Source: Clostridia bacterium (GTDB taxonomy: Bacteria; Bacillota; Clostridia; DUPQ01). Taken from it: a stretch of 55,693 bases of DNA. The first letter of the stretch is position 1; each line of letters opens with the position of its first letter. The position numbers and the translations under genes were made by a program. This document shows, piece by piece, positions 12,248 to 13,549 of the stretch. The notes beneath the pieces are model-generated. The model did not search any database and was not told the DNA's origin. It saw only the letters and a program-made list of their open reading frames with translations. The stretch lies in the NCBI GenBank assembly GCA_046484975.1, contig JAWOHX010000045.1, positions 1 through 55,693 on the forward strand, written 5' to 3'.

Positions 12248-13549
12248 TTAATTATCCCCTACGTTGAGGAACGGGATCTTGATGACCTGCCCTACCCTGA
12301 TGCTGTTGGGATTGGTGATGTCCTCATTGAACCCGACAATCTCGTCAACATATTCCGATGTGCCGTAGAACATGATGCTGATCCTGGCCAGGGTGTCCCC
12401 GCTCTGTACGGTGTATTCCCTGAAAAGGGGCGTCTCAGTGGGTTCCGGCGTGGGTTCCGGTGTGGGTTCCGGCGTGGGTTCCGGTGTGGGTGTGGGTTGC
12501 ACGGTGGCGGTGGGGGTCGGAGTGGGGGCCGGGGTTTCCACCACCTTGTCATTGAATATCATTGTCAGCAGATGGTACATCCCATAAATGATTCCTGCCA
12601 TCAAGGCCAGGACGATGACAATGCTCACCAGTCTTTTCAGATAGATGTTCATCCTCCTGCGGATTCTGGCGGGTTTTTGTATGTTGGCGAAAACGGACTT
12701 CCTTGCCTCGTTCTGGTCCTTCATCTTCGCGGACATCTCCCTGTCCGCCACATCGCTGATGAACAGGCCCTTGGCTGCGGTGTCCCCGAGCTTGTGCTGA
12801 AGTTCGGTCTCCAGGACCTTCATCACGATGACGACGATGTTGTCCGTCACGGATTTTGCATTGGCCTGCCCGATGAGTCTCCATGCGTTCTCGTCGGATG
12901 TCAGCTGGGGATCCAGGGAATCAGAAACAAATTCCTGGTCCAGGATGGCATTGACATTGGAGGAGCAAATCAGAATCATGTCATTCTTCAGCAACTTGCC
13001 GATGTCATGCTTGCGCACGGCTTTCTCCGATGGGGAATACTTTTCTGAAGTCTGTTCACCGGCATCATCCCCATCATCAGTGGGCGGAAAAACATTGAGC
13101 ACCATATCGGTGCTGACATAATATGCGGAATGGGGCTGGTTGGAAATCAGGCTTGCATGCCCGTCGGAAATCAGGACGCCTGAGAACAGCTTGTCCTGGG
13201 CGAATTGCTTCTCATCCATCCCTTGGACTCCGAAGAGGAAATCATATGTGCCTTTGATGCAGTTCTCAAAACCGGTGGCCTTTTCGTTAAAACCCTGCAT
13301 GTCATGGATCTTCTTATGGTAGCGCTTGAGTTCCTTCATGGCGGATATGAATGTCTGGCTCTGATCAATGACGGATTCCATGTTCTCGCTCAATGCATAA
13401 ATGAAATCGCTGTCGGTGAGGTCGTTGGTGACCTGGACATTGTCAATTTTCTCCGTGTTGCCGATTCTGCCATTTATATAGAAGCCTATTTTCGTGCTTT
13501 TAACTCTGTCGAAAGTGACGCAGGTTACGCTCAAAGTAGTTTTAGACAT
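12248..13549 (-). CDS. Membrane protein: degenerate PP2C-like domain, TM helix, Pro/Thr linker, C-terminal LysM
   Basis: LysM motif [13 protein letters not shown]...[16 protein letters not shown] at about aa 307-329. PP2C-like spacing in [11 protein letters not shown]...[21 protein letters not shown]. LysM is high confidence, PP2C moderate. Confidence 0.8.
12438..12491. repeat. In-frame 12-bp tandem repeat (about 4.5 copies) encoding the PTPE linker
   Basis: gtgggttccgg(c/t) x4 followed by gtgggt. Confidence 0.9.

Follow-up and report, generated by a model that had tools for sequence, protein, structure and literature searches.

A syntenic Clostridia gene for a degenerate PP2C-like domain, a predicted transmembrane helix and a LysM domain: a candidate wall-facing pseudophosphatase

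The window examined here, a 55,693-nucleotide contig of a Clostridia bacterium (GTDB lineage DUPQ01; GenBank assembly GCA_046484975.1, contig JAWOHX010000045.1), carries on its minus strand a 433-aa open reading frame (12248-13549) that appears to encode a membrane pseudophosphatase, in which a PP2C-like domain with a degenerate active site is followed by a single predicted transmembrane (TM) helix and a LysM domain predicted to face the cell wall. Taking sequence comparisons and structural models together, we favor, with a probability of roughly 0.55, a non-catalytic receptor or scaffold that would link the state or position of the wall to the cytoplasm. What marks the protein as a pseudophosphatase is that, by sequence and by model, the phosphatase fold appears to be retained, its metal ligands have been lost and the coding sequence has stayed under purifying selection. 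The protein is real, conserved and uncharacterized, and is a variant on two themes, the membrane PP2Cs and the PPM-fold pseudophosphatases.

Homology of the N-terminal domain

Judged by sequence profiles and by a predicted model, the N-terminal domain is a homolog of the PP2C/PPM phosphatases and belongs to their fold superfamily. When a profile of the degenerate clade that contains the protein (20 sequences) was compared by hhalign with one of 21 canonical Clostridia Stp phosphatases, the two aligned over 210 columns (probability 98.1, E=1.4e-13). The same clade matched the non-degenerate members of its own family over 245 columns (probability 99.9, E=1.1e-34), and those members in turn matched the 21 canonical Stp sequences over 242 columns (probability 100, E=1e-39). 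With profile-profile E-values of 1e-13 to 1e-34, the resemblance to PP2C is not due to chance. A profile of 54 family members also matched solved bacterial PP2Cs across the whole domain (tPphA, 2j82, E=7e-21; PstP, 1txo, E=6e-20; Staphylococcus aureus Stp1, 6ihl, E=5e-16), and distant full-length relatives matched the NCBIfam Stp1/IreP model almost end to end (E=2e-20 to 8e-9).

The ESM Atlas holds a model of the exact protein (predicted template-modeling score, pTM, 0.55; predicted local distance difference test score, pLDDT, 0.61). Residues 1-250 of this model superpose on clusters named PP2C or SpoIIE over 207-236 residues, with template-modeling scores of 0.68-0.79 by query, both sides of the superposition being predicted models. 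The initial annotation had proposed a PP2C/PPM domain here and had staked the proposal on whether the domain models as PPM; the profile-profile homology and the superposition both bear it out. Its four motif alignments were also reproduced. Residues 18-27 correspond to the NED block of motif I, ALSENMES (52-59) to the motif II block, residues 136-144 to GDSR and MILICSSNV (191-199) to CSDGL, and TDNIVVIV (235-242) retains the Asp of motif XI.

State of the active site

Catalytic inactivity appears likely from the sequence. Aligned with its family, the protein has I21, E55, S197 and D236 at the positions of the core metal-binding Asp residues of motifs I, II, VIII and XI, so that one Asp of the four remains, in line with the earlier claim that most metal ligands had been replaced. 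The Gly positions of motifs II and VIII are filled by N56 and N198, the Asp and Arg of GDSR by P139 and S141, and the Glu-Asp pair of motif I by Lys-Ile. A catalytically competent PP2C carries the four Asp together with both Gly residues, a set that this protein lacks. Single substitutions of the core Asp abolish PP2C activity, and it is from this established role of the Asp residues that a loss of phosphate hydrolysis would be expected. The flap has changed as well: the wider family keeps the canonical ERLLKMGIITDEQAE motif there, whereas the window's clade has a shorter flap with other residues in its place. At the degenerated flap (aa 170-173 of the window's protein) a conserved YSPS motif is seen.

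The register at motif I was at first ambiguous, since D36 fell on the canonical Asp in one MAFFT run and in an hhalign comparison with a single sequence. Profile-profile alignment settled it by placing the family's N-E-D-N-F-Y block, which reads T19-K20-I21 in the window's protein, on the canonical "NEDs"; a 15-residue family-specific insertion, relative to canonical Stp, follows motif I. Because the motif I column was displaced in the MAFFT alignment with Stp1, the count of 11 sequences in 78 with all four Asp from that alignment was not used; the Asp counts given here come from the family-only alignment of 54 members.

Family, phylogeny and selection

Collinear full-length homology, running from a PP2C-like domain with an FYxNG insertion through the TM helix to a C-terminal LysM, identifies the window's protein as a degenerate branch of an uncharacterized Clostridia PP2C-TM-LysM family and not as a lone oddity. 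A search with the N-terminal domain alone (aa 1-260) against 1.84 billion representative proteins returned 52 clusters at an E-value of 1e-3 or below, mostly 416-594 aa in length and aligned over approximately aa 20-250. A Pfam scan of 21 of these clusters found a C-terminal LysM in 20, and a PP2C-type gathering threshold was passed by 6 of the 21. Database names for the relatives are "LysM domain-containing protein" and, in one case, "serine/threonine protein phosphatase". End-to-end profile matches occurred in at least 26 of 300 sampled Clostridia genomes and at least 6 of 71 families (f1, f4, f5, f21, f23 and f49), both figures being floors because they are drawn from the best 150 of 546 matches; the family profile also caught the soluble Stp of nearly every sampled genome. 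A pattern search from the single protein gave 26 matches, none of which was confirmed as a relative.

Among the 54 aligned members, all four core Asp residues are kept in 15, three in 11, two in 10, one in 14 and none in 4. In a quick IQ-TREE maximum-likelihood tree the 22 degenerate sequences whose genes are linked to coaE form one clade (Shimodaira-Hasegawa-like approximate likelihood ratio test, SH-aLRT, 98) nested within the family; a member from another GTDB family (G024, f5) sits on a long branch and its placement is unsure. By these sequences the metal-binding site was lost once in the window's lineage. At the second Gly of DGMGG, 49 of the 54 members carry Glu or Asp, members with all four core Asp among them. 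An acidic residue in the E58 column is a family-wide active-site signature, not seen in canonical Stp.

Within its lineage the gene belongs to the syntenic core, and it is under purifying selection. It is present in 20 of the 21 genomes of the window's GTDB family, which makes up the entire order, and the single miss is a genome that is 89% complete. Ratios of nonsynonymous to synonymous substitution (dN/dS; Nei-Gojobori), computed across 245 codons of the PP2C-like part, were 0.08, 0.12, 0.15, 0.06 and 0.11 in the five of ten ortholog pairs with unsaturated dS, and no frameshift or stop was found in any family match.

Topology and the LysM domain

The N-terminus does not resemble a signal peptide, and the sole hydrophobic segment (about aa 306-330) is preceded by a basic patch (aa 295-306). 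There are six Lys or Arg residues, for a net charge of +6, in the 15 residues before this segment and a net charge of -1 in the 15 after it. Because of this positive-inside charge pattern around a single hydrophobic segment, a single-pass, N-in and C-out topology is predicted, in which the PP2C-like domain is cytoplasmic and the LysM extracellular, and the topology put forward in the initial annotation agrees with it. Hydropathy, charge, composition and Pfam likewise recover the basic patch, single TM helix, Pro/Thr stalk and C-terminal LysM that had been described. The stalk (aa 334-375) is 64% Pro plus Thr. The LysM (aa 379-426) matches Pfam PF01476 over its full profile, 1-43 (E=4.4e-9; 36.6 bits against a gathering cut-off of 20.9), and also matches the LysM of Ecp6 in the PDB (E=1.5e-8). 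LysM binds peptidoglycan glycan, and on the strength of that established knowledge peptidoglycan binding would be expected of this domain.

The linker between the PP2C-like domain and the basic patch is shortest in the window's protein and is longer and acidic in its relatives. In genus g3 members, whose linkers are long and acidic, the linker contains a conserved GIFAAAASIF motif, of which the window's protein keeps only a vestige.

Homodimer model and conservation of the transmembrane helix

Structural modeling supports a homodimer of the cytoplasmic domain. Two copies of aa 1-336, modeled with the subclade alignment, gave a median interface score (interaction prediction score from aligned errors, ipSAE) of 0.49 (runs of 0.54, 0.49 and 0.49), and the best of three homodimer controls was 0.00. 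Among proteins solved as pairs of one chain, 20 of 30 attain this ipSAE; among those solved as single chains, 1 of 23 does. Both counts are only approximate here, because the homodimer model used a custom alignment. At least 80% of contacts are shared between the runs (pLDDT 75-77). In the confident interface, aa 34-45 of the two copies pair symmetrically, and residue 28 and residues 217-223 also take part; the paired strand lies at the end of the family-specific insertion and carries a conserved "DN.QVS" motif.

Mean between-genus identity is 31% in the PP2C-like domain, 14% in the linker, 55% in the juxtamembrane and TM segment (aa 290-333), 41% in the stalk and 44% in the LysM. The juxtamembrane and TM segment is the best conserved part of the protein and contains its densest run of invariant residues: R299, I302, Y303, K305, M324 and L327 are invariant, and R306, S309, I310, V313, A318, G319, I320 and G323 are at least 90% conserved. 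Such strong conservation hints at an additional partner within the membrane.

Other phosphatases and kinases of the genome

The genome (2.07 Mb, 97% complete) encodes a canonical Stp that scores 246 bits against the Stp1/IreP cut-off of 230 and lies in an rsmB-rlmN-stp-prkC operon beside a PASTA kinase. The stp-prkC pair is on another contig than the window's gene. Because the genome has this separate canonical Stp next to a PASTA kinase, the window's protein is not the housekeeping phosphatase. On the same equivalog model the window's protein scores 20.5 bits, and no gene for a PASTA Ser/Thr kinase adjoins its own.

A second soluble PP2C of 241 aa (L002 1480-2205, G000:C18) scores 123 bits on the Stp1 model, below the cut-off, and lies approximately 18 kb from the canonical stp-prkC operon. 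A further PP2C paralog, a 443-aa open frame with a C-terminal match to SpoIIE-type PP2C (E=3.8e-9), is found at G000:C42:8400-8804. Neither Spo0A nor SpoIIE reached its cut-off in the 97% complete genome, which makes a sporulation role unlikely.

Locus and features

Coordinates are collected in Table 1. The initial annotation had credited the gene with its own ribosome-binding site and its own terminator, and both were found: the strong site AAGGAGGG stands before the ATG, and a hairpin past the stop codon folds at -16 kcal/mol as minus-strand RNA (z=-3.67), a stability equaled by 1 of 200 shuffled sequences. This hairpin (within 12185-12242) is a perfect palindrome with an A-run on one side and a T-run on the other, and bidirectional termination is possible. 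Right after it, on the minus strand and before ylxM-ffh, is a site that matches a sigma-70-like promoter at 11 of 12 positions. Within the 55-bp gap between coaE and the gene the scan listed no promoter-like site, and for this reason the gene may be co-transcribed with polA-coaE.

Table 1. Features of the gene and its protein, in window coordinates
Feature	Coordinates	Strand	Basis
Whole coding sequence: PP2C-like domain, linker, TM helix, Pro/Thr stalk and LysM	12248..13549	-	Open reading frame list; full-length relatives
Predicted cytoplasmic PP2C-fold domain, aa 1-247, with degenerate active site (I21, E55, S197, D236)	12809..13549	-	hhalign, Atlas model, residue table, dN/dS
Family-specific insertion after motif I and the next strand, aa 25-45	13415..13477	-	Alignment against canonical Stp; complex model
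E55-N56-M57-E58 in place of DGMGG	13376..13387	-	Clade and family alignments
Variable charged linker, aa 248-294	12668..12808	-	Alignment; between-genus identity 14%
Basic juxtamembrane patch and predicted single TM helix, aa 295-330, with G319xxxG323	12560..12667	-	Hydropathy, charge, conservation
Pro/Thr-rich stalk, predicted extracellular, aa 337-375	12425..12541	-	Composition
LysM domain, predicted extracellular, aa 379-426	12272..12415	-	Pfam PF01476; Ecp6 LysM in the PDB
Ribosome-binding site AAGGAGGG, 7 nt upstream of ATG	13557..13564	-	Direct sequence reading
Palindromic hairpin between A- and T-runs, intrinsic terminator of the gene	12217..12242	.	Terminator scan and RNA fold

In the window the gene stands between coaE and ylxM, and the order polA-coaE-gene-ylxM-ffh recurs in all ten loci examined from its own GTDB family; beyond ffh the conserved block continues with rpsP-KH-rimM-trmD wherever the contig extends that far. 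In one locus of the same family (L023, G004:C25, approximately 573 to 7156) some 6.5 kb is inserted between the gene and ylxM, and the order is broken. Just upstream of polA the window encodes a 230-aa zf-HC2 anti-sigma-like protein (16733-17425, minus strand), and tblastn located it at the equivalent position in 4 of the 10 loci examined from the same family.

Outside the window's family the position next to coaE is not kept, except in G024, where the order is polA-coaE-gene, and the neighbors are unrelated metabolic, chaperone or surface-protein genes. The G024 gene (L030 5721-7616), the only coaE-linked member outside the window's family, is followed by a GH20 beta-N-acetylhexosaminidase-like gene, a neighbor related to N-acetylglucosamine (GlcNAc) and a single case; its protein lacks all four core Asp residues in the MAFFT alignment, in which the motif I column is unreliable. 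In family f23 (L029 9160-11325 and L035 9268-11409) the gene is followed by one for a surface protein of 713-721 aa with YcdB/PepSY repeats and an SLH domain.

Discussion

There is reason to think that this protein arose from a working phosphatase and was kept for another purpose. Its ancestor would have been a Clostridia PP2C-TM-LysM protein, some relatives of which still appear catalytically competent. In the window's lineage the motif I Asp would have given way to Ile, the Asp-Gly of motif II to Glu-Asn and that of motif VIII to Ser-Asn, with a shortening of the flap, and the fold, the family-specific dimer strand and the TM helix would have been retained under purifying selection. Outside the cell the LysM is predicted to anchor the protein to the glycan strands of peptidoglycan; inside, the dead PP2C-like domain, probably homodimeric, would bind rather than dephosphorylate a cytoplasmic partner, perhaps one of the phospho-Ser/Thr proteins in the PrkC/Stp circuit, perhaps some other protein of envelope biogenesis. 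The analogy with eukaryotic PPM pseudophosphatases points first to phosphoproteins of that circuit. The outcome would be a non-catalytic receptor or scaffold that carries information on wall state or position to the cytoplasm; the role of one-component sensor that the initial annotation had suggested is likewise an inference.

Several results weigh against this interpretation. On the side of homology, a Pfam scan of the window's protein recognized the LysM and no PP2C-type domain, and the 20.5-bit match to the NCBIfam Stp1/IreP model (NF033484; E=2.8e-4) covers only aa 185-243, the end of the model. A hidden Markov model built from the subclade alone found no significant PP2C match in the PDB (best E=0.19), and hhalign of the subclade against the single Stp1 sequence of the genome was weak (probability 45%, E=2.2e-4); both of these are superseded by the profile-profile runs described above. 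The fold itself is read from the predicted model of the Atlas. On the side of mechanism, E55 is a conservative replacement of Asp at the bridging position, and to judge from the residues present an acidic cluster of E55, E58 and D236 could still hold metal. The TM helix with its GxxxG motif lies outside the confident dimer interface, which leaves its strong conservation unexplained, although its absence from the confident contacts is no evidence against homodimerization through GxxxG. Finally, the gene has no conserved operon partner at the loci examined, its neighbors being housekeeping genes in its own family and varying elsewhere; because they are housekeeping or variable, they tie the protein neither to PrkC/Stp nor to any other particular pathway.

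Of the alternatives, most weight goes to the idea that the protein is not a sensor but a wall-tethered structural or positional component, held at a fixed site of the envelope by the LysM and the conserved TM helix, for example in a division or elongation complex reached through that helix, with the dead PP2C-like domain acting only as a dimerizing cytoplasmic plug. We regard this as possible if unlikely. It would account for a juxtamembrane and TM segment that is better conserved between genera (55%) than the PP2C-like domain (31%), and for a GxxxG motif suggestive of an intramembrane partner; the gene's place among constitutive housekeeping genes and a dimer model that passed its controls are also in keeping with it, and YneA of Bacillus subtilis, a TM-LysM division inhibitor, is a precedent for action on the divisome. 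A domain of 247 residues with invariant surface-type positions (E73, K79, K80, T101 and E113) and dN/dS of 0.06-0.15 is, however, more than a plug would need, and no divisome or elongasome gene is linked at the loci examined.

A still-active, atypical metal-dependent phosphatase is distinctly less probable. Here a one-metal or altered two-metal site would be re-formed from E55-N56-M57-E58 and D236, with the LysM directing the enzyme to where the wall is synthesized. The conservative Asp-to-Glu change at E55 invites such a proposal, as does the acidic residue at position 58 in 49 of the 54 members, which suggests that the family's site was unusual before it degenerated. The stretch is also tightly constrained in the degenerate clade, where N56 is invariant and E55, M57 and E58 are each at least 90% conserved, and the dN/dS is low. 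Against this, only one core Asp is left, neither motif Gly is kept, motif I reads Lys-Ile in place of Glu-Asp, GDSR has lost its Asp and Arg to Pro and Ser, the flap is shortened, and in PP2Cs single Asp substitutions suffice to abolish activity. The nearly unvarying ENME at the old metal site, kept despite the loss of the catalytic ligands around it, might alternatively reflect a pocket that now binds a small molecule or metabolite, with the protein reporting a cytoplasmic ligand to the envelope; the loci of the window's family show no linkage to metabolic genes, and we give this little credence. That only the TM-LysM part still functions, the N-terminal domain being a relic in decay, is scarcely credible, since the lost catalytic residues and rapid divergence of that domain (31% identity between genera) are set against dN/dS of 0.06-0.15 over 245 codons in five unsaturated pairs, the lack of frameshifts or stops in family matches, and conserved motifs across the whole domain.

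The pseudophosphatase reading can be placed among known systems. By sequence the closest are the Stp1/IreP/PrpC PP2Cs of Firmicutes (NF033484), partners of PASTA kinases, which share the fold and provide the best NCBIfam match. These are soluble proteins of about 250 aa with all metal ligands and a kinase-adjacent gene; the window's protein differs in keeping one Asp of four, in its 15-residue insertion and shortened flap, in its TM helix and LysM, and in lying far from the stp-prkC operon. By layout the closest is PstP of Mycobacterium tuberculosis (1txo), with a cytoplasmic PP2C, a juxtamembrane region, one TM helix and an extracellular domain, an arrangement that the window's protein is predicted to share, although its active site is not intact. 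PstP is an active Mn-dependent enzyme with a non-LysM extracellular domain and is encoded in the fhaA-pknB division and wall operon, and none of these properties applies to the window's protein. YneA is likewise an N-in single-pass protein with a C-terminal extracellular LysM, and the LysM region of its model (NF010723) matches the window's protein weakly (E=0.012) and the relative P0022, a member with all four Asp, at E=2e-11. The cytoplasmic tail of YneA is short and the protein is induced by the SOS response, whereas the window's protein has a 247-aa PP2C-like domain and no SOS link was seen.

The closest parallels in logic are the plant LysM receptors NFR5 and LYK5 and the PASTA kinases such as PrkC, which join an extracellular glycan-binding module through one TM helix to a domain of Ser/Thr signaling. 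NFR5 and LYK5 are pseudokinases in which a dead cytoplasmic domain acts through an active partner. In all of these the cytoplasmic fold is that of a kinase and not of a phosphatase, so that the likeness is one of design and not of homology. One might go further and see the family as a hitherto unrecognized class of receptor phosphatases facing peptidoglycan, a counterpart to the PASTA kinases, in which one order-level lineage has become a dimeric pseudophosphatase that, on sensing wall glycan through its LysM, sequesters or positions phospho-Ser/Thr proteins of the PrkC/Stp circuit and does not dephosphorylate them, a bacterial analog of the plant co-receptors NFR5 and LYK5; this larger scheme we hold to be speculative and rather doubtful.

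Comparable in fate are the PPM-fold pseudophosphatases of eukaryotes, among them PHLPP2 (PMC12002173) and TAB1. These resemble the window's protein in a kept PP2C fold, diverged metal residues and a proposed binding role. As cytosolic proteins of eukaryotes, either soluble or multi-domain, they have neither TM helix nor LysM, and the kinship is at the level of the superfamily only. A full-text literature search, judged by listings and abstract openings, returned no paper on a bacterial PP2C-LysM protein, and the remark in the initial annotation that it recognized no characterized protein of this architecture stands to that extent.

Current understanding of Ser/Thr signaling at the Gram-positive envelope comes chiefly from PASTA kinases and the soluble PP2Cs that partner them. 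A LysM fused to a PP2C would place the phosphatase side of such a circuit at the wall too, in proteins that databases mostly label merely as "LysM domain-containing". To our knowledge, PP2C-fold pseudophosphatases are well known in eukaryotes (TAB1 and PHLPP2) and barely documented in prokaryotes. The window's lineage is a natural experiment in this respect, for the catalytic residues have been lost and the gene has nonetheless remained a syntenic core gene under purifying selection, and it is this combination of catalytic loss and retention that argues for a non-catalytic binding function of a bacterial PP2C fold.

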